Program-made: the position numbers and the translations under genes | In this document: positions 21,497 to 53,114 of the stretch, piece by piece | Layout of the letters: the number at the start of each line of letters is the position of its first letter | Numbering within the stretch: the first letter of the stretch is position 1 | The notes under the pieces: generated by a model | Databases searched by the model: none | What the model saw: only the letters and a program-made list of their open reading frames with translations | What the model was told of the DNA's origin: nothing | NCBI RefSeq assembly: GCF_022846255.1 | Contig: NZ_AP025682.1 | DNA: 64,000 bases | DNA from: Escherichia coli | Lineage (GTDB): Bacteria; Pseudomonadota; Gammaproteobacteria; Enterobacterales; Enterobacteriaceae | Direction: 5' to 3' (one strand)

Positions 21497-21614
21497 TACC
21501 GAACGCCGGAGAACTGGACGACGACACCACGAAGCAGTCATTTCAGTCGGGGGATGATTGTAGACAAATTTGTTGACGCTATTTTGCGGTTTTGGCGTGA
21601 AGGGTGAGCATTCA

Positions 21615-22193: not shown

Positions 22194-22333
22194 CCCATAA
22201 ATGGATAGCTTCGATGATATACCGCCGCGGAAGATGATCGGGGAGTTTATTCATGGAGAATGTCCTTATACGTTCTCAGAACAGGCAGCAAAAAAACAAA
22301 TGAGATCAAGGTAATATATCTTCACTTGCAGGC

Positions 22334-23263: not shown

Positions 23264-23373
23264 GGTTGATAATACCGCGCCCCTATAATCTTGCCATCTC
23301 GTGCATTGAGATGTTAAAAGCTACAAATGTTCTCCCTATTTTTCAATGTAGACATTTATAGCAATATCAAAAT

Positions 23374-28500: not shown

Positions 28501-30003
28501 TTGCGATTCGCCCTGAAATTTGTCTCTTTTATATCCGTCACGCTCCGTTTCCAGACCACCCAACGTCTTTTGTAGTTTATCGTATGACTGTCTGAGGACA
28601 TGGCTTTCCCTGTCCATCTGCCCTAATTCTTCCTCAAGCGTAGCCTCCTGCTGGCGATGTCTGTCGATTGCCCACTCTAATGTGCCCAAGGCTTCGCCAG
28701 CAGTACGCTCGAAAATCACCTGTAGCGGCCTTTCCGTTTCACTTTGGAATACCTTCAGATCTTCATCTGCCTGGCGGTACTCATTCAGGGCCTTAGCATA
28801 GGCTTTGTAGTCTATAGCAGCGTGAGTAATCTCAATCTGGTGCTGATTGGTATCGGCTTCGTCTTGAAGCGCATCGACTATCGCTTTTTGTTTGTCGAAC
28901 TGATGCTGCACGAGATCATATTCAAGCAGTGCTCTGCGCTTACCTAACTGCTCACGCAGAGACATCGCCTGGCCAATATGTGTTTGCAAACTATCCATGT
29001 TATCTTCAAGCTGCGTCTGTTCAACCTGAGCATCCCCGACAAAGGCTGCGAGATCGCGCATTGCTTCTCGGAAGCCATCATCCAGCAGTTGCTGCTGTGC
29101 CTGGATGCTTTCCAGCTGTTTAGCCGGATCAAGAAACGCCAGCCAGTTAGCCAGCACATCCTTCAGGAAGGACTCGTTACGACGAATCCCCTCTAACTCT
29201 CCCTGACGCTCAACTTCATGCGCTACCAGTTCCCGCAGCCGCTCAGCCGCATCTTTAGACATGGTGCAGGCGAAGAACGCGCCAAGGAAATCATGTTCAG
29301 TTTTGTATTCGATAAAACGGGTCAGGCCACCTTCTTCGGAGTTGAAGGTCACCATTGTTTTGATAAGATCAACGTTAATTTGTTGTTCCAGTAAAAATGC
29401 GCGCCACTCGTTCTGTCTGGTGGTTTTACGCCAATGCATACCGCCTTCACTACCGGCCTTGAGATTAAGCCAGCTATCAAAACTGCGCAGGCTATTGGCA
29501 TAGGGGCGCAGCTCAGAATTGCGTTCCGCGCGGGAATAAGAAGGGACTTCATCAAACGGCGCGCCCATCAGGGAGTCGGGCGCATCACAAATAAACAGTG
29601 TCCGGTCAACATCATCTCCATTACGCTGATGAGCATGTCCTAGTAATAACGTTTGTCCTGATTCATTGACCATCTCAACCAAAACAACAGAGAGTTCTTT
29701 ATAGAAGTAATTGCGGTAGTGGTATTCACTCTGGCGATGATTTGCCAGATATTGGGTGAAGTCACTAACGGACGGCTCAAAAATCGATAACAGCAGCGCG
29801 ATGTAGGTCGACTTACCACCCCCATTCACAAGCTGCTGATAAGTACTGGTCACCACCTTCGCATTCCTGACGGGCGAGCGCAGACCTTCAACAACAGGGC
29901 TACTGACCGCTTGAGACAGGCCAATATAGTCCAGTGTGAGGTCCTTGTAGAAAGCTTCTTCATGGCCTGCACCATCCATATAAACCCGTTTAATCAGCCA
30001 CAT
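25567..30003 (-). CDS. jetC: JetC-like SMC/MukB-family ATPase (Wadjet)
   Basis: 1478 aa; N-terminal P-loop (VNGGGKSTY), very long coiled-coil middle, C-terminal signature/Walker B region (LLADNPLGKSNANDL...IQLIYLTGISDE). Confidence 0.7.
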   Translation of the reverse strand: MWLIKRVYMDGAGHEEAFYKDLTLDYIGLSQAVSSPVVEGLRSPVRNAKVVTSTYQQLVNGGGKSTYIALLLSIFEPSVSDFTQYLANHRQSEYHYRNYFYKELSVVLVEMVNESGQTLLLGHAHQRNGDDVDRTLFICDAPDSLMGAPFDEVPSYSRAERNSELRPYANSLRSFDSWLNLKAGSEGGMHWRKTTRQNEWRAFLLEQQINVDLIKTMVTFNSEEGGLTRFIEYKTEHDFLGAFFACTMSKDAAERLRELVAHEVERQGELEGIRRNESFLKDVLANWLAFLDPAKQLESIQAQQQLLDDGFREAMRDLAAFVGDAQVEQTQLEDNMDSLQTHIGQAMSLREQLGKRRALLEYDLVQHQFDKQKAIVDALQDEADTNQHQIEITHAAIDYKAYAKALNEYRQADEDLKVFQSETERPLQVIFERTAGEALGTLEWAIDRHRQQEATLEEELGQMDRESHVLRQSYDKLQKTLGGLETERDGYKRDKFQGESQRNELCEAGLIQKDETPVAAQYRLELTLRDAKQSEELANTILHQKEQALEAQLNVVREASIEKSEAQQKLILAKQKHQSAVDSALLLAKTYQKLPSSTRHDLDIEDTSWHSELCGLQLDKVLNANAQTLNGMKERLLQARHELDELRVTGHELVAKQVNEALEAFYAAGIARDKLWTFPHYLASAHNDDAQKIAAVIDQNPGRYLSLVALDNVTFEQVHKISEILPWKKAPIAIYLLDEAQDLRRETSELVQVVLSNPDKHGYSQAAYETRLQDLENTVASQEVSVKAAESALKVLESFRNDWSRHYEQYGKHWAGLLDQRELALLILENADAALKQAEHDEQTLRDEKRDVQVRLNNAQQQKIQAEKAHDKVSLFVEKEWAKRETAIMKLEQLAAQIQRSKNTLYTQRERLERLSELEKNKRSEKTLLIIQIGSWSNLCNEPFYSEITATEGMEGRSPEYAHEMAAQAHKKLLEAANGDQVTVLKQQLKDAEQAQRYASDRLTAQPTYNTYPDEVKAAAINELTVINNSIVRLKEQQKQFTQNLISSQVTLQKFSQSCEEASKALDEDFVWEEKPIEIEAIQTSLAEIVNNLYAIEHQIKFLLEQKTLLLRKIENVKERLQNAKTAQAMIQPITPSSAAGLPGRILSITEYADDLAAQCQVYAGLNETLKQQNMRVSTVWGKFRKRIEEELAKDPDARASQEYLRPLDSIATYHEVLGDLERVGTGISQVFEAVQDSLEQFQRSIDLTVTHLTAHLEGAIKLLRRAMSVKIPEDCPVLPGRPIIKMTDRLNDVAADIRGFASSRLQQWIARGQIPRAPNRDALTADLVQSVFGEGELEVRLLKTNASRPQWTPVTRLEGSGGQRLTSAFLLFVTVGKVREYDTGISSAGFLLADNPLGKSNANDLMRIQTQMAKAYKIQLIYLTGISDENAQSMFDNHLFLNKVQKLRRRDLVTVDKERHALWAASLAAKPQFDPVI

Positions 30004-30005
30004 AC

Positions 30006-30902
30006 TTAAATCTCCGTCAAGCGTTGCGTTTCTGTGGTTCCAGTTGTAACTGGACGTTCATTGAGCGAAGGAAACTCCAGGGTATCTGCTAATGCTGCAA
30101 GATCGCTTTCAGCTAAATCGGACGACCGTTCTTCTACGGCTGGACTGATGCTCATGACAAAGCGCACCGTCTCTTCGATGCCAGTATGGCGCAGATAATG
30201 TTTGAGTTTTTGGGTCGGATACCAGTCGGACTCTCCCGACAAACTGCTGTCTTCGGCCAGAAAGCCTTCCTCCTGCAGCAGTTGTATCCAGCGCGTTGCC
30301 ATTTCTGTTTGCGAGCGAATACTTGAGACACGCCCTACCTTTTCGTCGTGAATACGGGGAATACGTTCTTCCTGCACAAACCTGGCCGCCATAAGTAGGC
30401 CATCTACGGTATCGTCACCCTCGGCCTTGCGCTGGGCAATCACCTGGTCGGCAACATTATTGAGCCTGGCTACCACCGAGGCTGCATTAATGGCGTTACT
30501 CTGACCGAACTCGACACGAACGGTGTCTGGAGTTGGAAACAAATCAGCCAGCAACGCAATCAGAGTTAAGCCTGCAAACAGGCGCTGTTCTTTCCGTTCC
30601 TTACCCTGTTGCTCAGCCATTGTTTCAGGTAGCAAGCGTTTGTTCAGCCAACCCAAAGATGGGGAAAACGGACCTCGGCCATCTGCAGCCAGTAATACCC
30701 CGTAGGTCTCATGAATCCCGAGATACCGCAATTTCATACCTGTCGCGACGCCACGGATAATCTCTGTGAACAGGGCATCACCTTGCAGATCAAGAGCACG
30801 TTGAATCAGCTCATCCCCCATTTTATATCCCAGTGAATTCATAATTGCCTGCGTGGCAATCTCGGCGTAGCGTTTAGTTTGTTGATGCGCGTTGTCGTAC
30901 AT
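30006..30902 (-). CDS. jetB: JetB-like (MksE-like) subunit (Wadjet)
   Basis: 298-aa ORF translationally coupled between jetA (4-nt overlap) and jetC (3-nt gap); assignment by size and operon position. Confidence 0.55.
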   Translation of the reverse strand: MYDNAHQQTKRYAEIATQAIMNSLGYKMGDELIQRALDLQGDALFTEIIRGVATGMKLRYLGIHETYGVLLAADGRGPFSPSLGWLNKRLLPETMAEQQGKERKEQRLFAGLTLIALLADLFPTPDTVRVEFGQSNAINAASVVARLNNVADQVIAQRKAEGDDTVDGLLMAARFVQEERIPRIHDEKVGRVSSIRSQTEMATRWIQLLQEEGFLAEDSSLSGESDWYPTQKLKHYLRHTGIEETVRFVMSISPAVEERSSDLAESDLAALADTLEFPSLNERPVTTGTTETQRLTEI

Positions 30903-30904
30903 AA

Positions 30905-32371
30905 CTACTCCTCAAAGGGGTATAAGGGAGCAACCGTTAACAGTTTGATATTGTTAGCCCGCCAGAGCGTTGTTTCGATAGCGCCGTCTATCTCCACTTC
31001 TATTGCGGGATCGCTGTTAGCTGCCAGGCTGCCAATATGGAGTAAACAAACCTGTTGCTCTTGTTCGGATAATTCTTCGCCCTCATAGGCGTCAAAAACA
31101 TCTCTAAAGCTCACATGCCCCCAATTCTTCAATCGGTCACTAACCCAATCGCTGCATTTTTTAATGACAGATTCAGGGATACCTCGCAGGTTGGTTTCAA
31201 TAGCTACAGGCTGATCGGTGAGGTCCTGTATCTCATGTGGAAGCGCCTGTTCAAATCTATCGAGATAAAGGTTCAGCAGCGCCTCAAGGTCAAACAGAAT
31301 GTGCCGATCATCATCCTGTCTTCGGGGAGCCAACAGGCGTGCGGTGAGATCATCGATTTCCTTTTCGACAGTGTCGGGGGAATGAGACAGCAAGGGCTTG
31401 AGTGCACCTTTTTCCAGTGTTTCCCGAAAGAGGGTATTATCTCTGGGAATAATGAGTTTCAGACGAGCTCGCTCAAAATCTTTATTCACATCCAGTAAGC
31501 AGTCTTGATAGCGCTGCGTAAAAGCGCAGACCTCAGCAAAAATCTCCTGTGCTCTACGTAGCTTATTTAATTTGTCGGGATTTAATTTCGAAATTCCTTC
31601 AACCAGCATTTCGGTAATGGCCGACATTGAGTTCTGGATATGTTCCAAAACCTCTCGGGTTTTATCAAAGGAATCATTGAGTACGGGACGGATATCGTGT
31701 GCATAAGATGCACTCAAATCACCAGACTGGGCGGCACGCACTTTCATCCGCATTCCAATCAGATATTGCTCCAGTTGCCGCTGTGTTGATTGGATTTGGT
31801 GTACTGCCTTGTCGATCTCTCCGCGACGGATCGTTTTAAGCGTGCGCCAGGCCAGAATCGCAGCGCGTTCTATCGGCGTTTCATCCAAGCGCAGGGTATA
31901 GAACAACATTCCTTCATCAGTCAGCGACCAGAGAATATCATCTGAGCCGGATAGCTGGTCATAGCGTACCAGACGGACTATCTGCTCTTCGGAATGCGTT
32001 CGTTGCGAGAAATCATAATAACGGAGGCGGAAAGGATCTTTGATCGCCACAAAAATCTTGCTGGCCACTTGTGCGTAGTCGGGTTCTTCTTGTCCCGGAT
32101 AGGCTTCATTGAGGTGCCCAACCAGACATAACTCCGCTTCCTTACGCGTCATTCCAGGCCGGCGCTCGCGGTCAGCATAATAAAGCATGGCGTCAAAGAG
32201 ATACATGATTGCCGCCAGCGCATCAAGCTCAACACCATCGAACGGATTTCGCTGAAGGGCGCTATATATTGAATCCAGCGTCCGCACGACCAGCAAGGCG
32301 TGAGACTGAATAGACAGCTCACGACGTGCCATTGATTCATTACGAGCCTGCTCCAAAAACCCTAGCGACAT
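30905..32371 (-). CDS. jetA: JetA-like (MksF/kleisin-like) subunit (Wadjet)
   Basis: 488-aa ORF, first gene of the operon; assignment by size and position upstream of JetB/JetC/JetD. Confidence 0.55.
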   Translation of the reverse strand: MSLGFLEQARNESMARRELSIQSHALLVVRTLDSIYSALQRNPFDGVELDALAAIMYLFDAMLYYADRERRPGMTRKEAELCLVGHLNEAYPGQEEPDYAQVASKIFVAIKDPFRLRYYDFSQRTHSEEQIVRLVRYDQLSGSDDILWSLTDEGMLFYTLRLDETPIERAAILAWRTLKTIRRGEIDKAVHQIQSTQRQLEQYLIGMRMKVRAAQSGDLSASYAHDIRPVLNDSFDKTREVLEHIQNSMSAITEMLVEGISKLNPDKLNKLRRAQEIFAEVCAFTQRYQDCLLDVNKDFERARLKLIIPRDNTLFRETLEKGALKPLLSHSPDTVEKEIDDLTARLLAPRRQDDDRHILFDLEALLNLYLDRFEQALPHEIQDLTDQPVAIETNLRGIPESVIKKCSDWVSDRLKNWGHVSFRDVFDAYEGEELSEQEQQVCLLHIGSLAANSDPAIEVEIDGAIETTLWRANNIKLLTVAPLYPFEE

Positions 32372-32546: not shown

Positions 32547-33440
32547 ATGTACTACTCAAAGTTTCTTGAGAAACACAAATCCCCCCTCAGCCACGCACAA
32601 TGGTTGCGCTTGCGCTATATTGAGCGCCAGCTACTGTGGGAACGAAAAGTCACTTCGCGCATGATTGCTGAAGAGTTTGGCGTCTCGGCGCAACAAGCTC
32701 GTACTGATGTAAGAACCTATATGGAGGTCGCTCCAGGCAATGCTATTGAGAAGGGGGCCGGCCGAAAAGGGTATTTCCCCAGTACGACGTTTACGCCTGT
32801 TTTGCTGGGAGACAACGATCTGGTCTGGCGTGCGACGGTAGAATTTCAACCGCCGCAAGCGGCCCACGCGCAGGAAATCCCGCTCATCCATCGCGCCGTG
32901 CATAGCCGCACGCTGGCAATTTTTTTGTCAGCAATCGAACAGAAAGGACAAGTAAAAGTGACTTATGCGTCAATGGAAAACCCGGAAGGCATATCTCGTA
33001 CACTAAGCCCTACGGTAATTATCACCGTTAACGGGCGTCAGCATGTGCGAGCCTATGACTGGGGAAGTTCGGCGTTTAAGGACTTTGTTTTGGCGCGATT
33101 TCTGGACTCGCCGGAACTGATTGTTCCTGCACCCGCCCCGCCACGCAAAGATACCGCGTGGGAGGTCATAATCCCCGTGCGTTTTATCGCAAATCCAACA
33201 CTAAACAAAGCGCAACAAGAGGTAATTAAGCGGGACTATTTACTTGAACCCTCTGAATTCAACATTCGTGCACCAATGATTTTTTATTTATGCCCTGAAA
33301 ACAATCTGCCTAAAACAGATGATGAATATGCACAAGCTACTGACGCCAGCAGCCACGGCCCCTTTATCTACCCTGTTCTAGCTGTGCACGCCCAAACAGG
33401 GGAGCCTATTCATAAGTACCGCCATGCAGGTGAGAGATAG
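32547..33440 (+). CDS. HTH transcriptional regulator with WYL-like domain (BrxR/CapW-like)
   Basis: HTH segment (SRMIAEEFGVSAQQARTDVRTYM) followed by WYL-like core (VRAYDWGSSAFKDFVLARF); divergent from jetA. Confidence 0.45.
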   Translation: MYYSKFLEKHKSPLSHAQWLRLRYIERQLLWERKVTSRMIAEEFGVSAQQARTDVRTYMEVAPGNAIEKGAGRKGYFPSTTFTPVLLGDNDLVWRATVEFQPPQAAHAQEIPLIHRAVHSRTLAIFLSAIEQKGQVKVTYASMENPEGISRTLSPTVIITVNGRQHVRAYDWGSSAFKDFVLARFLDSPELIVPAPAPPRKDTAWEVIIPVRFIANPTLNKAQQEVIKRDYLLEPSEFNIRAPMIFYLCPENNLPKTDDEYAQATDASSHGPFIYPVLAVHAQTGEPIHKYRHAGER

Positions 33441-33948: not shown

Positions 33949-34818
33949 TCAATCAAGAGGGATGGTCCACATTGACGTATCAAAATCGATCTCTGACCAG
34001 CGAGCAAAACGTAGCTCACTGGAGCGAATAAAGATAAGCAGAGTGAGTTCCGTTGCCCAGCGGGTTAGCGGCCTGCCGGTATAGCCGTCTATTTTCTCAA
34101 GTAACTCAGGGATGCGCTTTAACTCCAGCGCCGGACGATGCTGTCGATTACTGGAAGCAACCGCCCCCGCCATCTCTTGTGCCGGGTTATAATCAATTAA
34201 TCCACTTTGCACTGCATAACGCATGATGGCCGTGGTGCGCTGTTGAAGGCGGGAAGCCACTTCAAAACGTCCAGATTTCTCCACGGCTTTAATGGGAATT
34301 AACAGATCGCGGGTGCCCAGTTCAGCAATATTGCGAGCAACAATTGTTGGGAAGATATTGTCCTCCAGGCTCTTTTTTCCACGATTAGCATGATCTTCCG
34401 ACCATTTTTGGTTGGTTACGAGCCACTCTCTGGCAACCTTCTCGAAAGTAATAATCTCTTTCGCCTGCTCTTCTTTCACAGCACGTTTATGCTCACGAGG
34501 ATCGATACCAGCAGCGACCAGCTTTCTGGCCTCTTCCCTTTTCTTCCGCGCATCCGCCAGCGAAACATCCGGGTAAACGCCGAACGCCATCAAATGTTGT
34601 TTACCACCAAAACGGAAACGAAATCGCCAATACTTTGAACCGCCAGGTTTTACAAGTAAAGACATGCCGTCGCCGTCAACAAGTGAATACTCTTTCTCCT
34701 CAGGTTTTGCAGGACGAACTTTAGTATACGTTAGGGCTATAGTGGTCTTCCTTCCATTGGTATCTCGTGAGTATACAAGCAATATCGAATCGGCAAATAT
34801 ACTTATAAGTATACTCAC
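33949..34818 (-). pseudogene. P4-type tyrosine integrase, C-terminally truncated (intB-like remnant)
   Basis: Residues align with the N-terminal two thirds of the intact integrase at 51593-52840 (GSKYWRFRFRFGGKQ..., RLQQRTTAIMRYAVQSGLIDYNPAQ, LTLLIFIRSSELRFARWSEIDF) but end at ...WTIPLD before the catalytic region. Confidence 0.75.
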
Positions 34819-34940: not shown

Positions 34941-34963
34941 TGGTGCGAAGGCCGGACTCGAAC
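34941..34963 (-). repeat. 23-bp direct repeat of the leuX 3-prime end (att site / island junction)
   Basis: tggtgcgaaggccggactcgaac matches the 3-prime end of the tRNA at 53030-53054 except for one deleted base. Confidence 0.8.
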
Positions 34964-35685: not shown

Positions 35686-37371
35686 ATGTTTAAAATTATG
35701 AATGCCCATAGTTTAGAGATGAGAAAAGAGTTAGGAGCATATTATACTCCAAGTGCTCTTAGTCAAGTGATGTCAGATTGGGCAATTAGAAGACCAACTG
35801 ATAAAATACTTGAGCCAAGTTTTGGAGGCTGTGGCTTTTTAGAAAGCTGTGAAAAGAGCCTCATGGAGATAGGCTGCATAAACCCAATGGAAAATTTATT
35901 TGGGGTTGATGTAGACCAAAAAGCCTTTGATACTCTCAAAAAAAAATATGGGCATTTATTAATAAAAAAACATTTCATTTTAAGTGATTTCATTAACGTA
36001 TTTCCAAAAGATTTTGGCATTGAAGATTTTGAGGTTATCATTGGGAACCCTCCTTATATCTCTATGCATAATATGAGTTATGAACAAAGGAAGTCCTGTG
36101 AAAAAGTTTTTGCTGACTCACCTTTTAAAACAAAAACATTAGGACGCAATGCAAGTCTTTGGGGGTTTTTCTTACTCCATGCATTAAGCTTCATTCGAGA
36201 AAATGGACGAATAGCGTGGGTATTACCGAGTAGTTTTTTAAATGCCTATTATGCGAAAGAGCTTATAAGAATTTACAAAAATCATTTTAACCATCTAAAA
36301 ATAATAAAGATAAATGAAAGACTTTTCAAAAATGAAGGTGCCGATGAAATGTCAGTACTTTTTTTATGCGATGAGTTTCACAGGACACCTATCAATAATG
36401 GATACGTTTCAATTGGATTTGCTGACACATTAAATGAACTAACCAGCATAATGACTGGAACTAAAGAAAACAAATTAAATAGCTCTGAAAATTACAAATA
36501 TAATATATTAGATATTGACACATTAAATGTGATATCGTCTATAACAGAACATAAGTACAGTTTAAAAATACAGGATATTGCTGATATAAAGATTGGGATG
36601 GTAACCGGCATGAACAACTTCTTTATATTGGATCAAAATCAAATTTTAAAACATAATTTAGACAATAAACATTTTAGACCAGTTATTTCACGATTTTCAC
36701 ATTTGAAGGGAATTCACCACACATTAAAAAGACATACGAAGTTAATTGCAGACAATAAAAAAGGATTGCTATTACACGTCAGTCCAGATGATTTATATGA
36801 AAAACATAGTCCGTTGAGAAAATATTTATCACAAGTTGATAGAAAAGAACGAGTCAAAAACCGCACATTCAAAAAACGAAAAAAGTGGTTTCAACCAGAT
36901 GATGGTATTTACCCAGACGCATTTTTTTCATATATGGTTCATGAGTTTCCCAGAATGATATTAAATAAAGGGAAAGTTAACTGCACTAACTCAATACATC
37001 GTATCTTTTTCAAAGATATAGCATCTAATAAATTAAAAAAAGCATGTTGCATATCTCTTTTATCAACATTTTCACAACTTTCTGCCGAACTTGAAGGTCG
37101 GTCATATGGCTCAGGTGTGCTAAAAATAGAGCCTACCGCAGGAAAGAACATATCATTCTTAATTAAAGATGATTTAATACACGAGTTAAGCAACTTAAGT
37201 AAAGAAATAGATCAATTGCTTTTAAATAATGAAACAAGCAATGCCACTGCTTTAGTTGATAAGTTTTTTGTTGATAAGGGACTAATTAGCTTAGATGAAT
37301 TGAAAAGTCTTAAAAAAGGGTTATTCAGATTAAGAAAAGATCGATATAAAGGGGTCAAAAATTATGAGTGA
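35686..37371 (+). CDS. N6-adenine DNA methyltransferase (Eco57I-like gamma-class) with C-terminal extension
   Basis: Motifs GAYYTP, ILEPSFGGCGFL (motif I-like) and IIGNPPYIS (motif IV, approx 36044-36060); 561 aa; first gene of a tightly overlapping four-gene operon. Confidence 0.8.
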   Translation: MFKIMNAHSLEMRKELGAYYTPSALSQVMSDWAIRRPTDKILEPSFGGCGFLESCEKSLMEIGCINPMENLFGVDVDQKAFDTLKKKYGHLLIKKHFILSDFINVFPKDFGIEDFEVIIGNPPYISMHNMSYEQRKSCEKVFADSPFKTKTLGRNASLWGFFLLHALSFIRENGRIAWVLPSSFLNAYYAKELIRIYKNHFNHLKIIKINERLFKNEGADEMSVLFLCDEFHRTPINNGYVSIGFADTLNELTSIMTGTKENKLNSSENYKYNILDIDTLNVISSITEHKYSLKIQDIADIKIGMVTGMNNFFILDQNQILKHNLDNKHFRPVISRFSHLKGIHHTLKRHTKLIADNKKGLLLHVSPDDLYEKHSPLRKYLSQVDRKERVKNRTFKKRKKWFQPDDGIYPDAFFSYMVHEFPRMILNKGKVNCTNSIHRIFFKDIASNKLKKACCISLLSTFSQLSAELEGRSYGSGVLKIEPTAGKNISFLIKDDLIHELSNLSKEIDQLLLNNETSNATALVDKFFVDKGLISLDELKSLKKGLFRLRKDRYKGVKNYE

Positions 37372-39673
37372 AGATATTCTTTTTTTGAAGGATAAGATGA
37401 AAGCCCTCCTGGATAATGAGGCTCTCGATTATGATAAAGTATTAGAAACAGCAGTAAAAATCACCGAAAAAGACAACAACAATATTAGATTTTCTGTAGA
37501 TGCGAATTTAGTTAGAAGATTAGGTGAGCAGTTAGTCGCTAAAAAAACTACTGCTGTCAGTGAATTGGTGAAAAATGCTTATGACGCAGATTCGACATTA
37601 GTAAATGTATATTTCGAATTGAACGAAGCAAATCCTCGAATAGTCATATTCGATGACGGCACAGGTATGTCAAAGGAAGATATTATCAATGGATTCATGC
37701 GAATAAGCACAAGTGAAAAAGAAGATAACTCTGTTTCAGAACGATATCAGAGACTAAGAGCAGGTAGAAAAGGTATTGGGCGTTTTTCTACACAGCGATT
37801 AGGAAATTATTTAAAAATAATTACCAAGCAAGAAAATGAAGAGTTAGGATATTTAATAGAAATTAACTGGCAGCAGTTTTCAAAAAAGAAAAATATATCC
37901 TTCATTGCTAACACTATCTCAAAAATCGATGTGGATTTCATTCATGGAACAAAAATAATAATAGAAGATCTGAATGATAAAGATTGGTCTGATGGGAACA
38001 TAAAAACGGCTTATAAATATATTAAGAGCATTATAAATATTGCCCCAAGCGAGACAGATCCAGGTTTCCAAGTAAAGTTCTATTATAAAAATGCCAATGG
38101 CTATGAATTAGTTGCAGATGAGAAAACTGAAATTTTTTCTGATAGTGATGCTCATATTACAGCAACACTTGAAAATGGAAATGCTGTAGTGAGAGTTAGC
38201 AGTGAAACCCTTGGCATAAAAAATGAAAGCATAGATGTATGGTATGATGAAAAAAATAACATACGAAAATTCTCACATATAAACTCTCCAGTAAAGCTTG
38301 ATGCATACTATTTCTCATTAGCAACAGTTAACTCCAGAAAACAAGCGGCATATTTACGTGAAAATGGCGGAATAAAAATCTATCGAAATGGATTCAAGGT
38401 TTCTCCTTATGGAGAGCAGTATGATGACTGGACGGCTCTTGATGACTCGGTTCGAAGGAGAAAGATATTACCCCCTCATGGTAATCAAAACTTCTTTGGA
38501 CACGTCAAAGTTGAAGACCTAAATGGAATAGACTTTGAAGAAACGTCCTCAAGGGAAGGTCTGATTCATACCGATGCCTTTCAAGAACTTCGCCTCTTTG
38601 TATATAAAGCACTGACGGCTGCGGTAATAAGAATTAGTGAAGCCAGAAATATAAAAATAAATCCAAATGACCGTAGCTATGTTAAAGAAACTAAACCAAC
38701 AATATCAGTCAAAGATAAATTAAATATTGTATCTGAAACGATAAGCTCGGTTAGTAAATTGGTAGATGCAGCAACATCTGTTGATGACGTTTCAAGTGAT
38801 GGTGTCATTAATAACATTGAAGATAAAAGTATAAGAAACAAAATTATTGAAGATCTCCATGAAGCCGCAGATGAGCTAAAACAAGCGAGTGTGATATCTC
38901 AATCTTTAATCGATGAAATTGAGCTTCTTAGAGTGCTTGGCGCTATGGGCCTTGCTATTGGTGAGTTTACACACGAAATAAATTTATCAATAACAAGTTT
39001 GAGTATTAACGTTCAAAACCTTAAACAGTCTAAATTATTAGAGGAAGATAGAGACTCTGCTCTAAATAGCCTTGAAAATAATATTGCAACATTAAAATCA
39101 TTTACTAAATTTTTTGACAGTACTATACGTGAGAATGTAAACAGAAATAAGAAAGTTATTGAGATAAGAGACTCTATTGAGCCATTTTATGAATCGATGA
39201 AACCAATAATAGAACGCAAAGGAATTCAGTTTGCAATACATTATGAAGGTTATGAACTTTTTACGAAGCCGATTCATGTTTCAGAGCTATATTCTGTATT
39301 TATAAATCTCTTTACGAATGCATATAAAGCAATACTTCGTTCTGGAACAAATCCACGAAAAATGTCTTTAACTGCGAAAAAAGATAGTGAAGATATAATT
39401 ATCCGATTCGAAGATAGCGGTGATGGAATTGAACCTGCAAATAGAGAAAGAGTTTTTGAGCCTTTCTATACAACAAGTACACCATCAGGACCTTTTGAAA
39501 GTGATGATTTATCATTAAAAGGAATGGGATTGGGGTTATCAATCGTACGTGATCTCGTTGAATCCATGTCTGCAGAAATATCTATAGTTGATGCATCCGA
39601 TGGTTTTACAACGTGCTTTGAGTTGAGAATTCCAAAAGCTGATGATAAGGAAATACCAGATGACATCTATTAA
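37364..39673 (+). CDS. Dual Bergerat-fold ATPase: N-terminal MutL/HSP90/MORC-like GHKL module plus C-terminal histidine-kinase core (HisKA-like H-box + HATPase_c)
   Basis: N-terminal motifs ELVKNAYDAD (approx 37562-37591), DDGTGMS, GRKGIGRF; C-terminal H-box GEFTHEINLSITSL (approx 38961-39000), N-box LFTNAYKAIL, G1 EDSGDGIE, F-box FEPFYTT, G2 GMGLGLSIV; no obvious TM segment; start overlaps MTase stop by 8 nt. Confidence 0.7.
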   Translation: MSEDILFLKDKMKALLDNEALDYDKVLETAVKITEKDNNNIRFSVDANLVRRLGEQLVAKKTTAVSELVKNAYDADSTLVNVYFELNEANPRIVIFDDGTGMSKEDIINGFMRISTSEKEDNSVSERYQRLRAGRKGIGRFSTQRLGNYLKIITKQENEELGYLIEINWQQFSKKKNISFIANTISKIDVDFIHGTKIIIEDLNDKDWSDGNIKTAYKYIKSIINIAPSETDPGFQVKFYYKNANGYELVADEKTEIFSDSDAHITATLENGNAVVRVSSETLGIKNESIDVWYDEKNNIRKFSHINSPVKLDAYYFSLATVNSRKQAAYLRENGGIKIYRNGFKVSPYGEQYDDWTALDDSVRRRKILPPHGNQNFFGHVKVEDLNGIDFEETSSREGLIHTDAFQELRLFVYKALTAAVIRISEARNIKINPNDRSYVKETKPTISVKDKLNIVSETISSVSKLVDAATSVDDVSSDGVINNIEDKSIRNKIIEDLHEAADELKQASVISQSLIDEIELLRVLGAMGLAIGEFTHEINLSITSLSINVQNLKQSKLLEEDRDSALNSLENNIATLKSFTKFFDSTIRENVNRNKKVIEIRDSIEPFYESMKPIIERKGIQFAIHYEGYELFTKPIHVSELYSVFINLFTNAYKAILRSGTNPRKMSLTAKKDSEDIIIRFEDSGDGIEPANRERVFEPFYTTSTPSGPFESDDLSLKGMGLGLSIVRDLVESMSAEISIVDASDGFTTCFELRIPKADDKEIPDDIY

Positions 39674-40763
39674 CCTACTTTATATCGATGATGATCAGCC
39701 TCAGCAAGTAAAGGGTTTAATTGAAGCAATAATCAGTAAAGCGAGTTTTGATTTAAATATAACTCATAAACCGCCGACGAAAATGAGTGAAATAGCCATA
39801 GAGTTGAGACAAGGTTATGATGGTATCATCATAGATCAAAAACTTGACAGCTTTGTTGAGGGAGTAGAACCAGTTGATTACTTTGGTGCCGCGTTAGCAC
39901 AAAATTTGCGAACACTCATGGCGGGTAAGTCAGATAATATATCTTATAAGCCAATAATTTTACTCTCTCTCGAAAGCTTATTAATTGAATATTATAATCC
40001 CGATTCAAGCTCGCATGATCTATTTGATTTAGTTTTGAGTAAAAGCATATTAGAACAACCAGAATTGTTAGAAAAAAAAGTTCACTTAATAAAATCTATT
40101 GTGAATGCTTACAAACGTGCACATTCGGAAGACTCGTTATATCAATTGCTTTCTCTGAGCAGTAATTATTCATTGCTTGATAAAAGATTTGAAATATATA
40201 TTTCTCAGTATGATAAAGATATACATAAGCTCGTCACATCCATACACTCCACACTTCTGAGAAGTAGTGGCATGTTAGTTTCTGAGATAACTTTGGCAAC
40301 CAGACTGGGTATTAATATTGAAGAATCGCCAGACTGGCACCAAGTAATTGGGCACCTTGAGGAATATAAATACAATGGCATATTCTCTGATTATTATAAA
40401 AGATGGTGGTGGGCAGATGTAGAGTTGTGGATAAATAAAAAGCTTAACTGCCCAATAATTAAAGGATTAACCTCAGAAAAAAGAGTGGAGATCATCAAAG
40501 AAAAACTTGGCTTAGAACGATTGATGCCAATTCATAGCGTACATCCAGGCCAAAGCACCAAGTTTTGGGTTAATTGTATCATCAGTAAAGAACCTCTTGA
40601 TACAATAGATGCTCTTCGTGCATCATCTATGGAATTAAAACCTTGGGAAGATGATAAATACCTTTCAATTAAAACAGTGTTAGAGAGACGGGCCGAAAAA
40701 TATAAAGTACATCCAGAAGATAGAACAAAATTGGATCGAATTCGGGCGAGGTTTAAATTATAA
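39642..40763 (+). CDS. Receiver (REC)-like domain protein with unassigned ~250-aa C-terminal domain
   Basis: CheY-like pattern: LLYIDDD (beta1, acidic pocket), GIIIDQKL (candidate phospho-acceptor Asp), KPIILLSLES (beta4 Ser); divergent REC, so call is tentative; overlaps kinase gene stop. Confidence 0.5.
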   Translation: MIRKYQMTSINLLYIDDDQPQQVKGLIEAIISKASFDLNITHKPPTKMSEIAIELRQGYDGIIIDQKLDSFVEGVEPVDYFGAALAQNLRTLMAGKSDNISYKPIILLSLESLLIEYYNPDSSSHDLFDLVLSKSILEQPELLEKKVHLIKSIVNAYKRAHSEDSLYQLLSLSSNYSLLDKRFEIYISQYDKDIHKLVTSIHSTLLRSSGMLVSEITLATRLGINIEESPDWHQVIGHLEEYKYNGIFSDYYKRWWWADVELWINKKLNCPIIKGLTSEKRVEIIKEKLGLERLMPIHSVHPGQSTKFWVNCIISKEPLDTIDALRASSMELKPWEDDKYLSIKTVLERRAEKYKVHPEDRTKLDRIRARFKL

Positions 40764-41506
40764 TGAACAATAATACAACTTTGTTAGACGATATGTGTAG
40801 GCTCAGGGACTTTTTATATGATAGCCGCATATGCCCAGATATTAATCCTCTCAACCGTTTAATCAGTAAACTTAATGCAAATCTCCACTCCGAAACAGGG
40901 GAGGACTTTGAATACTCTTTAGACGATTTAGTATTTTATCTTAGCGAAAAATCTGGAACAATTTGTCCGACCCAAATTACACCCAAAGAAAACCCTATTG
41001 AAATACATTTGGAACTTATATTAAAAAGTGAAGGCCCTTATGAATTTTCGAAGATTAAAGAACTTTCAGGGCAATTACGACTTAAAGCTGAGTGGATCAA
41101 TGACACAACAGAAAAAATTGAGATAAAAACATCACATAGTGCTTGGCATTTTGATTATCATGTTCCTCAAATGGGGGATGGCGTAAATTCATTTACTCAT
41201 CCTCAATTCCATTTACAAAATGGAGGAAACAGGCTGACTGATAATTTAAATGACTATGGAGAGTTAATGATTCTTGATGCTCCAAGACTACCTTTACCTC
41301 CTATGGATGTGATATTAGCCATTGACTTTATTATTTCAAATTTCTTTGGTTCTATTTGGCAACAAGCATTATGTGATTCAGAATACATTGATGTAGTTAA
41401 AAGAGCACAAAAAGCATGGTGGAAACCTTATTATGAAGGTATAAGTCAACACTGGTCTGGCAATGGCTCAGGAATATCCAATATCCTAATTCCAAACCTT
41501 CTGTAG
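40763..41506 (+). CDS. Hypothetical protein (247 aa), fourth gene of the operon; possible effector
   Basis: ATG overlaps preceding stop (ATAATG); His-rich segment HFDYHVPQMGDGVNSFTHPQFH; no confident motif. Confidence 0.6.
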   Translation: MNNNTTLLDDMCRLRDFLYDSRICPDINPLNRLISKLNANLHSETGEDFEYSLDDLVFYLSEKSGTICPTQITPKENPIEIHLELILKSEGPYEFSKIKELSGQLRLKAEWINDTTEKIEIKTSHSAWHFDYHVPQMGDGVNSFTHPQFHLQNGGNRLTDNLNDYGELMILDAPRLPLPPMDVILAIDFIISNFFGSIWQQALCDSEYIDVVKRAQKAWWKPYYEGISQHWSGNGSGISNILIPNLL

Positions 41507-41771: not shown

Positions 41772-42185
41772 ATGAATGATAGGAATCATACTTTTAATAA
41801 GTTCGAGCCATTCAGAAGTTGTAGCTATGAAAATTTTACTTCTGCTAAAACACTCTCCCAGCAGACACGTTCTCATTGTATTAGTATCAGATTAAATGAT
41901 GCCGAGTTATCTTACGTTGATGGCTTACGAGAAGATCTCAACCGTGCTGTTTGGATACGTATGTCAGCATTGAATCGTCTCCCTTCCAAAATTCCTGAAA
42001 TAAATCTAATTGTCTGGAAAGACCTTGCCAAAGCATCTCAGAATCTGAATAACCTCGTTCAGCATCTCAACACTAAATCACACGATAGTCCTTTTACTAT
42101 CACCGAAATTTATACGGTACAAAAAAGAATAAAAGCACTAAGAGATGCCCTTCTGTCAGCAAATCGATCTGTCAGTGATAAATAA
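41772..42185 (+). CDS. MobC-like mobilization accessory protein
   Basis: Strong RBS aaggag 5 nt upstream of ATG 41772; small basic protein with ribbon-helix-helix-like segment (CISIRLNDAELSYVDGLRED); stop overlaps relaxase start (TAATG). Confidence 0.55.
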   Translation: MNDRNHTFNKFEPFRSCSYENFTSAKTLSQQTRSHCISIRLNDAELSYVDGLREDLNRAVWIRMSALNRLPSKIPEINLIVWKDLAKASQNLNNLVQHLNTKSHDSPFTITEIYTVQKRIKALRDALLSANRSVSDK

Positions 42186-43372
42186 TGAAAGGGATGCAAA
42201 AAATCCGCAGAGGAAAGAGTTTTGCTGGTGTCGTCCTCTATGCGTTAAAGCCCGGTTCTCATCATAAAAAAGACCCTATCGTGATCGGTGGAAATATAAC
42301 GATAGTTGGCAATGCCGCTAAAGATCTGATCGCTGAATTTGATAGCACCAAACAGCTTCGCCCTGACGTGCAAAAGGCTGTTTGGCACAACTCGCTTCGC
42401 TTACCTAAAGGTGAATCACTAACGGCTAAACAGTGGTCTGAAATAGCAGATGATTACATGTCCCGCATGGGCTTCTCTGAAACGCATCTCAGATGCTACG
42501 TCCTACATGACGACGAAGATGGCCAGCACATCCATATCATCGCCAGCAGAGTGTCTCTTGATGCCGGAAAGCTCTACCTCGGCAGGAATGAGAACCTGGC
42601 AAGCACGAGAATAATTCAGCAACTTGAAAGAAATTACAATCTGACAAGAACCAAAGGGCCAGGAGCTAAAGCATCTACATCTTCTCTTTCCTCTAAACCG
42701 AAACATAAAAAATCACGTAATGAGGCTATGTTAGAGGAGAGAACTGGTGAACCATGCCCTAAATCCATCATCCAAAGGGCTATAGATTCGATAACATTAA
42801 ATCCTATAGCAATTGATGACTTCGTTGAAAAGCTGAATAGCATAGGGATTACGGCGAAAAGCAATATTTCTTCAACTGGCAAGATGAATGGATTTTCCTT
42901 TGAATGCAAAGGTGTTGTGTTCAAAGCTTCCCAGCTTGGCAAGAAGTATAGTTGGAAGAACCTGGAATCAATGATTTCAATGAATTACAACTCACACATT
43001 GGTGATGAAAAACCTGTCATCCCTGAACCTGCTGCCCATCGCAGCAACGAAGCTGTCATACCTATAGTGGAAGACTATTCTGATGAAAAGATTTACCCTG
43101 AGATAAGGGTACCCTTACCAAGACCTGACACAGCGCCCACAAAACCTACAAGCATGACAATGCGTTGGATCGCAACCATACCTTATCTTGTGAGTGTTAT
43201 TAGCGCACTTAAAACGATGCGTATCCCCTTTCTAAAGGCGTTCAATGGCCCAAGGAAGTTCTTTTCCGTGTCCATGATTCACCTGTCCTCTGTAAGCCTG
43301 AAACAGACCAAAACGAATAATTTCAAACCAAAAAGTTCCCACCAAAAGGCCCACAAGCCCCTTCTCCCCTGA
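42185..43372 (+). CDS. Mobilization relaxase (MobA/VirD2-like)
   Basis: Relaxase histidine triad region HDDEDGQHIHIIASRV (HxH motif), N-terminal nickase-like domain; coupled to the MobC-like gene. Confidence 0.65.
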   Translation: MKGMQKIRRGKSFAGVVLYALKPGSHHKKDPIVIGGNITIVGNAAKDLIAEFDSTKQLRPDVQKAVWHNSLRLPKGESLTAKQWSEIADDYMSRMGFSETHLRCYVLHDDEDGQHIHIIASRVSLDAGKLYLGRNENLASTRIIQQLERNYNLTRTKGPGAKASTSSLSSKPKHKKSRNEAMLEERTGEPCPKSIIQRAIDSITLNPIAIDDFVEKLNSIGITAKSNISSTGKMNGFSFECKGVVFKASQLGKKYSWKNLESMISMNYNSHIGDEKPVIPEPAAHRSNEAVIPIVEDYSDEKIYPEIRVPLPRPDTAPTKPTSMTMRWIATIPYLVSVISALKTMRIPFLKAFNGPRKFFSVSMIHLSSVSLKQTKTNNFKPKSSHQKAHKPLLP

Positions 43373-51592: not shown

Positions 51593-52840
51593 TTAGTTAT
51601 TAAAATCAAAAGGTGCAATTCTTCTCTTAGTTGTTTCATCAAGATAATCAGCCCACCACTGCAACATCAACCTACGCTCATCCAAATGCTCAGCTTTATG
51701 AATGTATGCGGCACGAACGGAGTTCCGCTCCTGATGGCTCATCTGCCTCTCAACAGCATCTCTCGACCACTTTCCTGACTCGATCAAAGCACTACAAGCC
51801 ATCGCTCTAAAACCATGCCCACATACCTCAACGGTTGTGTCATAACCCATCGCCCTGAGCGCCTTGTTCACTGTGTTTTCGCTCATAGGTTTTCTGAAAT
51901 CATGATCGCCAATGAATACCAGGTCGCATTCGCCGCTGATTTCTCTGATGGCTTTTAGAAGTTCTAAAGCCTGACGACTTAACGGCACGAGGTGTGGGGT
52001 CTTCATTTTTGAACCTCGATGGGAATGTTTGACTCCTGGCAATAGCTCGCGTTCTCCAGGGATAGTCCACATCGCATTTTCAAAGTCGATCTCCGACCAT
52101 CTTGCGAATCGGAGTTCAATGGAACGGATAAAAATGAGCAATGTCAGCTTCACAGCTAATTTAGTAAGTTTCCTACCTTTAAAGCTTTCAATGCGCTCTA
52201 AAAGCTCTGAGAACCTATCAAATGGTAAGGCTGGTCTGTGGGTTCGTTTCGCAACTGTAATTGCCCCAGACATATCTTGTGCTGGATTGTAGTCAATTAA
52301 GCCATTCTGGACGGCATATCGCATTACTGCCGTAGTCCTTTGCTGTAGTCGGGAAGCAACTTCCAGTCGTCCAGAAGCTTCAACGGCCTTGATAGGGGCG
52401 ATAAGATCTCTGGTATTAAGCTCGGATATTTTTCTTTTACCAATAGCAGTAAAGAGACCATCCTCCATGCTTTTTAGAACTCTTTCGCTGTGAGAATCTG
52501 ACCATTTCCTTTTACAGGCAGTATGCCAGTCCCTTGCAACAGCTTCGAATGTCAGGGCTTCGCTTTGCTCAATCTTATCTGCTTTTTTCTTTTCAGAAGG
52601 ATCGATACCATCAGATACCAACTTTTTGGCTTCATCTCGCTTCCTGCGGGCTTCACCAAGAGAGACCATTGGATAAACACCCAATGCTAAAACTTTCTGT
52701 TTGCCCCCGAAACGGTATTGGAGTCGCCAGTACTTTGAACCATTGGGGTTGATCAGCAGGTGCATACCCTGCCCATCTGTGAGTTTGAAAGGTTTATCGG
52801 AGGGCTTTGTTGTTCGAACTTTGATATCAGTGAGTGCCAT
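51593..52840 (-). CDS. P4-type tyrosine integrase (intact)
   Basis: 415 aa; N-terminal GSKYWRLQYRFGGKQ and C-terminal catalytic region (HGFRAMACSAL, conserved Tyr region AAYIHKAE); starts 190 bp from the tRNA 3-prime end. Confidence 0.85.
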   Translation of the reverse strand: MALTDIKVRTTKPSDKPFKLTDGQGMHLLINPNGSKYWRLQYRFGGKQKVLALGVYPMVSLGEARRKRDEAKKLVSDGIDPSEKKKADKIEQSEALTFEAVARDWHTACKRKWSDSHSERVLKSMEDGLFTAIGKRKISELNTRDLIAPIKAVEASGRLEVASRLQQRTTAVMRYAVQNGLIDYNPAQDMSGAITVAKRTHRPALPFDRFSELLERIESFKGRKLTKLAVKLTLLIFIRSIELRFARWSEIDFENAMWTIPGERELLPGVKHSHRGSKMKTPHLVPLSRQALELLKAIREISGECDLVFIGDHDFRKPMSENTVNKALRAMGYDTTVEVCGHGFRAMACSALIESGKWSRDAVERQMSHQERNSVRAAYIHKAEHLDERRLMLQWWADYLDETTKRRIAPFDFNN

Positions 52841-53029: not shown

Positions 53030-53114
53030 TGGTGCCGAAGGCCGGACTCGAACCGGCACGTATTTCTACGGTTGATTTTGAATCAACTGCGTCTACCGAT
53101 TTCGCCACTTCGGC
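53030..53114 (-). tRNA. leuX: tRNA-Leu (leuX-like, 85 nt with long variable arm)
   Basis: Acceptor stem GCCGAAG/CUUCGGC, T-arm GGTTCGAGTCC and 3-prime CCA read on the minus strand; sits between ahr and a P4-type integrase as at the K-12 leuX locus. Confidence 0.9.

Follow-up and report, generated by a model that had tools for sequence, protein, structure and literature searches.

The window, a stretch of 64,000 nt of Escherichia coli DNA (contig NZ_AP025682.1), carries a four-gene cassette in the order methyltransferase, kinase, receiver protein and X4 (Table 1). The stop and start codons of neighbouring genes overlap by 8 nt (methyltransferase–kinase), 14 nt (kinase–receiver) and 1 nt (receiver–X4), indicating a translationally coupled unit with the kinase in second position. 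The cassette lies on an island of approximately 18.1 kb at tRNA-Leu, and the same tRNA-Leu context was also found in E. coli TUM11353. Because this island carries a MobA/TraI(MOBP)-like relaxase, it is an integrative mobilizable element. Wadjet III adjoins the cassette in the window, and the neighbours of related loci include prophage, ICE or TA/TIR genes.

Table 1. Features of the cassette and of the island that carries it (positions in the window)
Feature	Position	Strand	Basis
Double-GHKL soluble histidine kinase, AbrB-like	37364..39673	+	769 aa; ATG start; exact ORF bounds
Predicted N-terminal MutL/MORC/Hsp90-type GHKL ATPase head, aa 42-206	37487..37981	+	HATPase_c_3, BbrUII/HgiDII N-terminus and PDB profile matches
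Family-specific middle domain, aa 207-430	37982..38653	+	Invariant columns in homologue alignments
Predicted DHp (dimerisation/phosphotransfer) helices, aa 521-590	38924..39133	+	Weak HEF_HK match; HK853/CpxA/ZraS DHp alignment
Predicted CA (catalytic ATP-binding) domain, aa 636-762	39269..39649	+	HATPase_c; N, G1, F and G2 boxes
N6-adenine DNA methyltransferase, gamma class, Eco57I/TaqI-like	35686..37371	+	561 aa; PADLOC MTase_II PDLC03267; motifs
Response-regulator-like protein	39660..40763	+	367 aa; ATG at 39660 with AAGGA Shine-Dalgarno
Receiver domain, aa 1-132	39660-40055	+	D10/D11, phospho-acceptor D59, S103, K128
Unmatched C-terminal domain of the receiver protein, aa 134-367	40059-40760	+	
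X4, candidate effector	40763..41506	+	247 aa; invariant H129, D131, H146-P147, H150, R175
Island distal att repeat, identical over 18 nt to the 3' part of tRNA-Leu	34946..34963	.	Direct repeat 34946-34963 = 53036-53053
tRNA-Leu(CAA), island integration site	53030..53114	-	ARAGORN; contains proximal att 53036-53053
P4-type tyrosine integrase of the island	51593..52840	-	ORF translation; tyrosine-type recombinase/integrase in the annotation of locus L001
MobA/TraI(MOBP)-like relaxase of the island	42185..43372	+	NCBIfam TraI_MobP_relax, E 1e-19; relaxase in the annotation of locus L001

In the kinase, Pfam detected HATPase_c_3 (PF13589) at aa 63-187 (E 3.3e-22) and HATPase_c (PF02518) at aa 641-759 (E 1.4e-17), a double GHKL match far beyond chance at the sequence level, and this agrees with the original prediction of a single soluble polypeptide with two Bergerat-fold modules. 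The head contains E67-LVK-N71-AY-D74-A, D97-D-G-T-G101-M and G134-RK-G-I-G139, so that motifs I (E-x3-N-x2-D), II (D-x-G-x-G) and III (G-x2-G-x-G) are all present. Towards the C-terminus we read an H-box (F-T-H537-E538), an N-box (N648-LFT-N652), a G1 box (D684-S-G-D-G688), an F-box (F698) and a G2 box (G720-M-G-L-G724). Among 35 homologues of 33-89% identity, the head residues E67, N71, D74, D97, G99, G101, G134, G137 and G139 and the core residues H537, E538, N648, N652, D684, G686, G688, F698, G720, G722 and G724 were all invariant, confirming the motif triad and full box set predicted earlier. The peak 19-residue Kyte-Doolittle mean was only 1.37 and therefore does not indicate a transmembrane segment, and neither PAS, GAF, HAMP nor any other sensor domain was matched in Pfam; the predicted lack of membrane and classical sensor regions thus held. 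No nuclease domain was detected in the kinase by Pfam.

Database searches assigned the two halves of the protein to different families. By NCBIfam, aa 42-206 resembled the N-terminus of the BbrUII/HgiDII restriction enzymes (E 2e-27), and PDB sequence and profile searches matched aa 55-163 to MutL, MORC3, Mlh1, PMS1 and Hsp90. The region of aa ~520-760 matched many sensor kinases in NCBIfam, such as AtoS, PhoR and PnpS, and the C-terminal part was aligned over DHp and CA with HK853, ZraS and CpxA in the PDB sequence search. These sequence matches identify the head as a predicted GHKL (Bergerat-fold) ATPase of the MutL/MORC/Hsp90 branch, and the C-terminus as a complete HisKA-type two-component histidine-kinase core with His537 as the predicted phospho-acceptor. 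The original prediction had named HisKA and the two ATPase models for an HMM scan; both ATPase models matched, but HisKA (PF00512) did not and the other curated DHp models stayed below threshold in Pfam, aa 528-585 giving only a weak match to the DHp model HEF_HK (PF19191; E 0.0069, 17.3 bits). Membership of the BbrUII/HgiDII family (NF050001) was rejected because the score (96 bits) fell short of the curated cut-off (550 bits) and the alignment was limited to aa 42-206 over positions 2-170 of the 659-residue model. The middle domain, conserved over ~220 aa after the GHKL head, occupies the position of the S5 transducer of MutL and MORC and contains the invariant residues Y340-R-N342, P-Y-G350, D355-W356 and E393..R397-E398; it had no PDB sequence match.

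The methyltransferase was covered over its full length by the PADLOC model MTase_II PDLC03267 (E 2e-89) and contains an FGGCGF AdoMet motif and an IGNPPY catalytic motif, and its orthologues in related loci (L008-L010 and L012-L014) combine N6_Mtase, Eco57I and M_Eco57I_C. The receiver gene, directly downstream of the kinase, had been missed previously. The receiver fold was confirmed, and in the family alignment D11 and D59 were invariant and S103 and K128 nearly so; with this intact Asp pocket, the protein is the predicted cognate partner of the kinase. Within its C-terminal domain, aa 188-250 showed a predicted alpha-beta-alpha-alpha-beta order typical of winged helices, and the domain may be winged-helix-like on the basis of this order of elements. 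X4 is characterized by an invariant His/Asp cluster and matched neither Pfam nor PDB. Its assignment to DUF2290, as in the Rst Helicase+DUF2290 system, was rejected (0 of 40 family members in Pfam, 0 of 10 in PADLOC, and a cassette without helicase); two AFDB relatives of X4 bear the DUF2290 label. Searches of the receiver C-terminal domain and X4 revealed neither a nuclease nor another known effector fold. We infer that these are the output proteins of the cassette, X4 being a candidate effector.

The design of the kinase had been considered unusual, but more than 100 full-length homologue clusters possess both ATPase domains and the architecture was published in 2021 (PMC8011034). The best 120 homologue clusters were all full-length (750-920 aa) with PF13589 plus PF02518, and they span Vibrio, Pseudomonas, Klebsiella, Aeromonas, Bacteroidales and others. 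Gene order was analysed in 42 loci from the genome scan, with earlier loci counted separately. The order kinase-receiver-X4-methyltransferase, with the methyltransferase downstream of X4, was found in 26 of the 42 loci, methyltransferase-kinase-receiver-X4 in six, and SspBCD-kinase-receiver-X4 in four; a methyltransferase is thus adjacent in 32 of the 42 loci, as it is in the window. X4 was present in 40 of the 42, and the contig ends before X4 in the remaining two. The earlier loci added nine methyltransferase cases and two distinct Ssp cases (L004 and L007), giving six Ssp-partnered loci, in which sspD overlaps the kinase gene (SspB, SspC and SspD identified with E 1e-104, 0 and 2e-91, respectively). 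The receiver protein was always next to the kinase in the loci examined. In these loci the kinase-receiver-X4 triad is constant across phyla wherever the contig allows, and it is paired with an Eco57I-type m6A methyltransferase or, alternatively, with the SspBCD phosphorothioation genes.

The closest characterized system is Ambrosia (AbrR-AbrA-AbrB-AbrC-AbrD), a validated anti-phage system of P. aeruginosa in which the kinase AbrB is a required component, and in which AbrB N40A (in the N-terminal GHKL domain) and AbrC D60A (in the receiver) each abolish phage defence (bioRxiv 10.1101/2025.09.30.679545, 2025 preprint). Both systems cluster an N6-adenine methyltransferase, a soluble HATPase_c_3/HATPase_c kinase and a receiver protein. 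Over aa 43-403, the window kinase was 29% identical to AbrB, of which the N-terminal 399 aa were available (E 1e-36), with the middle-domain motifs YR(N/D)xF-V-PYG...DW and REGL in common, and the mutated AbrB N40 and AbrC D60 correspond to N71 of the window kinase and D59 of the window receiver. In contrast, three of the five Ambrosia genes, abrR, abrC and abrD, differ from the window cassette. The methyltransferases are remotely similar members of different subfamilies, AbrA, of 448 aa, being aligned with the 561-aa Eco57I-type enzyme only in the catalytic core (23% identity, E 9e-5). AbrC, of 209 aa, was aligned over 32 residues (E 0.016) with the 367-aa receiver protein, which has the large unmatched C-terminal domain; and AbrD is an HNH nuclease, whereas the window has the unrelated X4 (hhalign probability 0.1%). 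No XRE-like ORF corresponding to AbrR was found upstream of the window methyltransferase, and no AbrC- or AbrD-like gene was detected in any locus examined. Judged by sequence, the cassette is related to Ambrosia but distinct from it.

Kinases with HATPase_c_3, DHp and HATPase_c beside R-M genes were described by Bellieny-Rabelo, Pretorius & Moleleki (2021), who had already suggested that the GHKL domain at the N-terminus acts as sensor (PMC8011034). Their HEF_HK/Response_reg_2 pairs, for which a paraMORC origin was proposed, share the soluble architecture, a receiver-like gene within three genes and the R-M neighbourhood (PMC8011034). However, PF19191 matched 0 of 35 members of the window-kinase family at E <= 0.001 and three of 35 at E <= 0.1, no Response_reg_2 model (PF19192 included) matched any of 59 members of the window receiver family, and the neighbours emphasized for these pairs were C5-cytosine methylases, Vsr and HNH_2, with no description of Eco57I-type m6A methylases, X4 or Ssp genes (PMC8011034). 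The kinase architecture is thus widespread and already described, and the cassette is a distinct four-gene variant. MORC/paraMORC proteins and MutL likewise carry a Bergerat fold at the N-terminus, with the motifs E-x3-N, DxGxG and GxxGxG, and have DNA methylase neighbours; in MORC/paraMORC proteins the GHKL domain and an S5-fold transducer behind it form one ATPase module (Iyer, Abhiman & Aravind 2008, PMC2292703). The window kinase differs in having a histidine-kinase core as its C-terminal partner instead of a nuclease, TIR or helicase. Where Ssp genes are the partner (six loci), the triad comes immediately after sspB-sspC-sspD, in the place that SspE or SspFGH take in known systems. SspF, with its Walker A motif, and the FtsK-like SspH (PMC8092258) have no sequence relation to the triad. 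Homology to SspE/SspFGH was rejected: PADLOC, which identified SspA-D in related loci, gave no match for the receiver or X4, and the kinase matched no Ssp model. The window cassette itself carries a methyltransferase instead of Ssp genes, and PADLOC Detocs models matched none of its four proteins. Detocs (DtcABC) also uses His-to-Asp phosphotransfer for phage defence, but with a TPR-type sensor, a buffer receiver and a PNP effector, and it is not known to include a DNA-modification gene.

Taken together, we propose, with a probability of about 0.5, that the 769-aa protein acts as sensor kinase in a modification-linked, Ambrosia-like two-component defence cassette of four genes. A possible but less probable reading is that the kinase senses a non-DNA cue, with the head as a generic ATP- or protein-sensing input and no DNA clamp, and that the phosphorylated receiver activates its operon, so that synthesis of the methyltransferase and X4 would be confined to infection. 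Transcription factors make up the majority of receiver proteins, and the winged-helix-typical element order at aa 188-250 is consistent with this, but at 230 aa the C-terminal domain is far larger than a winged helix, and invariant Trp, Arg and Asp residues are numerous in it. In Ambrosia, reporters in place of abrA or abrD were silent until infection, AbrA-methylated phage was still restricted, and the authors favour transcriptional induction on infection (bioRxiv 10.1101/2025.09.30.679545); since methylation gave phage no protection and expression was infection-induced, a simple model of kinase activation by unmodified DNA is disfavoured and transcriptional control is favoured. On the other hand, the overlaps among all four genes of the window leave no space for an internal regulated promoter, and the XRE gene is absent. 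Because the triad continues the sspBCD operon in six loci and the methyltransferase follows X4 in 26, the modification and output genes appear to be co-transcribed with the sensor.

It is unlikely that the cassette serves a non-defence role, either as two-component (epigenetic) regulation of an orphan methyltransferase or as an addiction or maintenance module of the mobile element. The absence of a recognisable nuclease from the four genes, the mobile-element location seen both in the window and in several relatives, and the induction of a homologous locus during plant infection (Bellieny-Rabelo et al., PMC8011034) would agree with such a role, but the homologous AbrB system is proven to act against phage, SspBCD can replace the methyltransferase with the triad at the site of the SspE or SspFGH restriction partners, and the neighbours across the window and related loci include Wadjet, type I R-M, AbiEii, TIR and Pbe. 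We consider it very unlikely that the head is the working ATPase of a BbrUII/HgiDII- or paraMORC-like restriction motor, with the kinase core surviving as a remnant that serves structure or dimerisation and takes part in no phosphorelay. The similarity to BbrUII/HgiDII, a PADLOC type II restriction-enzyme model match, the DefenseFinder-type label of AbrB as type II restriction enzyme, and the presence in R-M operons of paraMORCs that are extended at the C-terminus (PMC2292703) point in that direction. Against it stand the invariance of H537, N648, N652, D684, G686, G688 and G720-G724, the constant adjacency of a receiver with an intact Asp pocket, the loss of Ambrosia defence in AbrC D60A, the BbrUII score far below cut-off and the lack of a nuclease domain in the kinase.

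In the proposed defence cassette, the paraMORC/restriction-enzyme-type head and the conserved middle domain would contact DNA or an infection cue carried by DNA. A DNA-bound GHKL clamp may be the kinase input, which would fit the methyltransferase or phosphorothioation partner and the restriction-enzyme-like head. ATP-driven dimerisation of the head, as in MutL, MORC and Hsp90, may switch the DHp-CA core to autophosphorylation of His537, from which the phosphoryl group would pass to receiver residue Asp59. [quoted passage not shown]

The kinase, a 769-aa protein, was searched for the two Bergerat-fold ATPase modules that had been claimed for it. In Pfam searches, residues 63-187 matched HATPase_c_3 (E 3.3e-22) and residues 641-759 matched HATPase_c (E 1.4e-17), confirming two such modules in one polypeptide, and the DHp model HEF_HK matched weakly at aa 528-585 (E 0.0069). 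Every motif expected from the original prediction was found, namely, E67-x3-N71-x2-D74, D97-x-G-x-G101 and G134-x2-G-x-G139 in the N-terminal GHKL domain (the head), and H537-E538, N648-x3-N652, D684-x-G-x-G688, F698 and G720-x-G-x-G724 in the kinase core; none of these residues varied among 35 aligned homologues with 33-89% identity. The head aligned with the N-terminal part of BbrUII/HgiDII-family restriction enzymes (NCBIfam, aa 42-206, E 2e-27), and aa 55-163 matched MutL, MORC3, Mlh1, PMS1 and Hsp90 in PDB sequence searches. Residues ~520-760 aligned to many curated sensor kinases in NCBIfam, and the C-terminal part of the protein matched HK853, ZraS and CpxA in the PDB. The absence of a transmembrane or classical sensor domain was likewise borne out, with a maximum 19-residue Kyte-Doolittle mean of 1.37 and no PAS, GAF or HAMP domain found with Pfam. 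The middle domain (aa 207-430), which occupies the transducer position of MutL, MORC and Hsp90, gave no match outside the GHKL core in a PDB sequence-profile search.

The earlier interpretation was thus right about the two-ATPase kinase, but overstated its rarity. The best 120 homologue clusters were all full-length (750-920 aa, 95-100% coverage) with 36-46% identity, close relatives apart, and all carried PF13589 and PF02518. These homologues came from Vibrio, Pseudomonas, Klebsiella, Aeromonas, Shewanella, Serratia, Bacteroidales and others, and both ATPase domains were present in all 35 sampled members. [quoted passage not shown] Two Bergerat ATPases in one kinase are therefore not new, but represent a known and widespread architecture. 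However, the subfamily of the present kinase lies outside the HEF_HK model (E <= 0.001 in none of 35 kinases), and none of 59 receiver proteins of the family matched Response_reg_2.

The kinase gene is the second of four same-strand genes, which overlap by 8, 14 and 1 nt (see table). The first product was matched along its entire length by a type II methyltransferase model of PADLOC (E 2e-89), and its orthologues have N6_Mtase, Eco57I and M_Eco57I_C. An XRE/C-protein gene was looked for 5' of the methyltransferase gene and was absent, and a consensus scan for an operon promoter and terminator gave no excess over the shuffled expectation and was hence uninformative.

Positions of the cassette, the surrounding island and neighbouring features
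Feature	Position (nt)	Strand	Description
Methyltransferase	35686-37371	+	561 aa; gamma-class N6-adenine DNA methyltransferase; FGGCGF and NPPY motifs
Kinase	37364-39673	+	769 aa; ATG start; position exactly as first reported
Receiver protein	39660-40763	+	367 aa
X4 (fourth protein)	40763-41506	+	247 aa
Direct repeats	34946-34963 and 53036-53053		exact, 18 nt; bound the low-GC stretch
tRNA-Leu(CAA)	53030-53114		contains the second repeat copy
P4-type integrase of island	51593-52840		
MobA/TraI-like relaxase of island	42185-43372		
Recombinase-like genes of island	45757-49905	-	three in succession; 543, 441 and 401 aa
Truncated P4-type integrase	33949-34818	-	289 aa; just beyond the distal att repeat
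Type III Wadjet locus	25567-32371 and 32547-33440	- and +	directly upstream of the island
Second low-GC stretch	14001-24000		37-42% GC, compared with ~50%

Neither the receiver protein nor X4 matched Pfam, NCBIfam, PADLOC or PHROGs, whether as a known defence family or otherwise. The AlphaFold2 model of the receiver protein was confident (pLDDT 93, pTM 0.90). The family conserves its acidic pair D10/D11, phospho-acceptor D59, S103 and K128, of which D11 and D59 are invariant in 59 sequences. The other 230 residues make up a conserved domain with RLG, S-x2-W, Y-x-G-x-F, RWW and P-x-D-x2-D motifs and a single conserved Cys. This C-domain gave chance-level matches only, and no sequence relative, in a PDB sequence-profile search, and the fold comparison of the protein was dominated by the receiver domain; the helix-strand-helix-helix-strand succession predicted for aa 188-250 in the model is reminiscent of a winged helix. 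The X4 family comprises 96 clusters without a Pfam member and has an invariant cluster of H129, D131, H146-P147, H150 and R175; in the PDB sequence-profile search, X4 also gave chance-level matches only. Assignment of X4 to DUF2290, a label carried by two relatives, was rejected, as none of 40 members matched the Pfam model and PADLOC gave no support.

The receiver family includes about 1,070 representatives at 50% identity (482 at E <= 1e-30), spanning Bacteroidota, Proteobacteria and other phyla. Gene order was compared at 42 genome loci, which came from a scan of species-representative genomes and were then surveyed in an HMM census; the scan relied on one peptide pattern, and the proportions are indicative only. 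The order kinase-receiver-X4-methyltransferase, with a methyltransferase of ~610-650 aa, was observed at 26 loci, the order of the window, with a methyltransferase of ~560 aa in first place, at six, and SspB-SspC-SspD-kinase-receiver-X4 at four, the remaining six being truncated or rearranged. At 40 of the 42 loci the receiver gene was followed by X4, and at the other two the contig ended before that point. Further Ssp-linked cases were the metagenome loci L004 and L007 (L005 duplicates L004), and the Ssp genes of the linked loci were assigned by PADLOC as SspB (E 1e-104), SspC (E 0), SspD (E 2e-91) and SspA (E 1e-153). Among the loci examined, the kinase-receiver-X4 triad is constant as far as the contigs extend, while its DNA-modification partner varies between an m6A methyltransferase and SspBCD. 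Identification of the triad as SspFGH was rejected, as SspF contains a Walker A motif and SspH resembles FtsK (PMC8092258). No paper linking a histidine kinase with phosphorothioation was found in the literature searched.

Several individual loci showed additional features. At L004 (9824-14925, minus strand), the strand opposite to that of the triad carries adjoining Pbe-like genes (PbeA, E 4e-291; PbeC, E 7e-30), and the phosphorothioation genes of this locus may therefore serve two restriction-type partners. In a Leptospiraceae MAG (L048, 2-4921, plus strand), the kinase ORF runs off the contig start and is at least 1,639 aa long, with >900 N-terminal residues that matched none of the queries used; neither a methyltransferase nor an Ssp gene was detected in its vicinity. 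A remote kinase homologue (26% identity) was observed on conjugative pTet-like plasmids (~51.6 kb) of Campylobacter jejuni (L003, 7001-10165, and others), split into two or three tblastn pieces and adjoining an annotated response regulator, with no listed gene in the ~3.3 kb on its 3' side; this version of the system may be decaying. The phage collection gave only remote, partial matches. One protein of Escherichia phage PhiR44_1, annotated as 'ParaMORC3' (PV340563.1, 8575-9048), has a GHKL head that shares 30% identity with residues 45-203 of the kinase. In the plasmid collection, X4 was found solely on a Hymenobacter plasmid.

The cassette lies in a stretch of low GC content (32-35%, compared with ~50%) bounded by direct repeats. 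This ~18.1-kb element carries genes for a P4-type integrase and a MobA/TraI-like relaxase, together with three additional recombinase-like genes, and is thus an integrative mobilizable element. In E. coli TUM11353, the recombinase-like trio is annotated as two tyrosine recombinases and one DNA-binding protein. Among 5,426 complete E. coli genomes, only one had a near-identical copy of the island (99.9%), and this copy occupies the same tRNA site. The truncated integrase outside the distal repeat resembles the N-terminal two-thirds of the intact enzyme, suggesting tandem or decayed islands at one tRNA-Leu site. The Wadjet locus includes JetC3 (1477 aa) and JetA3 (487 aa), both with PADLOC E 0, and a 297-aa ORF without a PADLOC match in the position of JetB; a divergent WYL-domain protein comes after these genes. 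TUM11353 is the one further E. coli genome in which the cassette occurs (L001, 4631-13116); there, the place of Wadjet is taken by a complete type I R-M system, together with a DUF4942 protein and the toxin-antitoxin pair AbiEii/DUF6088. The difference in upstream neighbours indicates that the tRNA-Leu flank is a variable defence hotspot. The second low-GC stretch of the window suggests another horizontally acquired segment.

One of the closest characterized systems is Ambrosia, an anti-phage system validated in Pseudomonas aeruginosa in a 2025 preprint (10.1101/2025.09.30.679545). It consists of an XRE regulator (AbrR), N6-methyltransferase AbrA, double-HATPase kinase AbrB, receiver AbrC and HNH nuclease AbrD; every component is required, and AbrB N40A (in the head), AbrC D60A and AbrD H60A each abolish defence (10.1101/2025.09.30.679545). 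When compared with the N-terminal 399 residues of AbrB, the kinase of the window aligned (29% identity, E 1e-36) across the head and the middle domain, including the YR(N/D)xF-V-PYG...DW and REGL motifs. In contrast, the 209-aa AbrC is barely similar to the receiver protein (E 0.016), AbrD is unrelated to X4, AbrA has only the catalytic core in common with the methyltransferase, and the window is without an XRE gene; none of the loci examined contained AbrC- or AbrD-like genes. The novelties of the cassette are its different receiver output domain, its new fourth protein and its interchangeability with phosphorothioation. Both of its ATPase modules and its His-to-Asp pair are intact, its genes are coupled in an operon, and it lies in a mobile and defence context; we put a probability of about 0.75 on an Ambrosia-like role in defence with a functional phosphorelay.

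In the mechanism proposed here, the restriction-enzyme/paraMORC-type head and the conserved middle domain would constitute the input, with R341 as a candidate gamma-phosphate contact. ATP-driven dimerization of the head would switch the DHp-CA core, the phosphoryl group of phosphorylated His537 would be transferred to Asp59 of the receiver protein, and the output would be delivered by the receiver-protein C-domain and X4. X4 holds the position of the nuclease of Ambrosia, and in Ssp-linked loci the triad holds that of SspE or SspFGH; from these positions, X4, alone or with the C-domain, is the best effector candidate. We give this complete mechanism roughly even odds. Given the relatives of the head and the modification partners, DNA is a plausible candidate input to the kinase. 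The Ambrosia data, in contrast, favour transcriptional induction: expression of that system rises upon infection, and phage methylated by AbrA is still restricted (10.1101/2025.09.30.679545). Purely transcriptional control is, however, at odds with the overlap of all four cassette genes, with the overlap of the kinase gene with sspD in Ssp loci, and with the position of the methyltransferase gene 3' of X4 in most loci; these overlaps and the downstream methyltransferase position indicate that the sensor, output and modification genes are co-transcribed.

Beyond kinase input by DNA, a more speculative and rather improbable reading is that the triad is a self-contained, modification-agnostic restriction module, in which the paraMORC-type head would read the DNA state and the phosphorelay would license a new kind of effector, X4, acting together with the receiver C-domain. 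The His-to-Asp phosphorelay would then replace direct ATPase-nuclease coupling, and the His/Asp cluster of X4 would be a metal-type site. If this is true, the triad would add a third class to the Ssp restriction modules SspE and SspFGH and, since it occurs with either an m6A methyltransferase or SspBCD, would be the first phosphorelay-gated phosphorothioation partner.

A very common cassette ties DNA modification to two-component signalling, with two of its four proteins lacking a recognizable family; concrete new leads are offered by these uncharacterized output proteins and by the connection with Ssp. Being small (5.8 kb), intact and in a tractable host, the E. coli copy makes a convenient model. 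The mechanism of MORC proteins is so far poorly understood, even in eukaryotes. If the triad is the restriction arm, it would show how a MORC-like ATPase couples to phosphotransfer and would provide a new effector family for phage defence.
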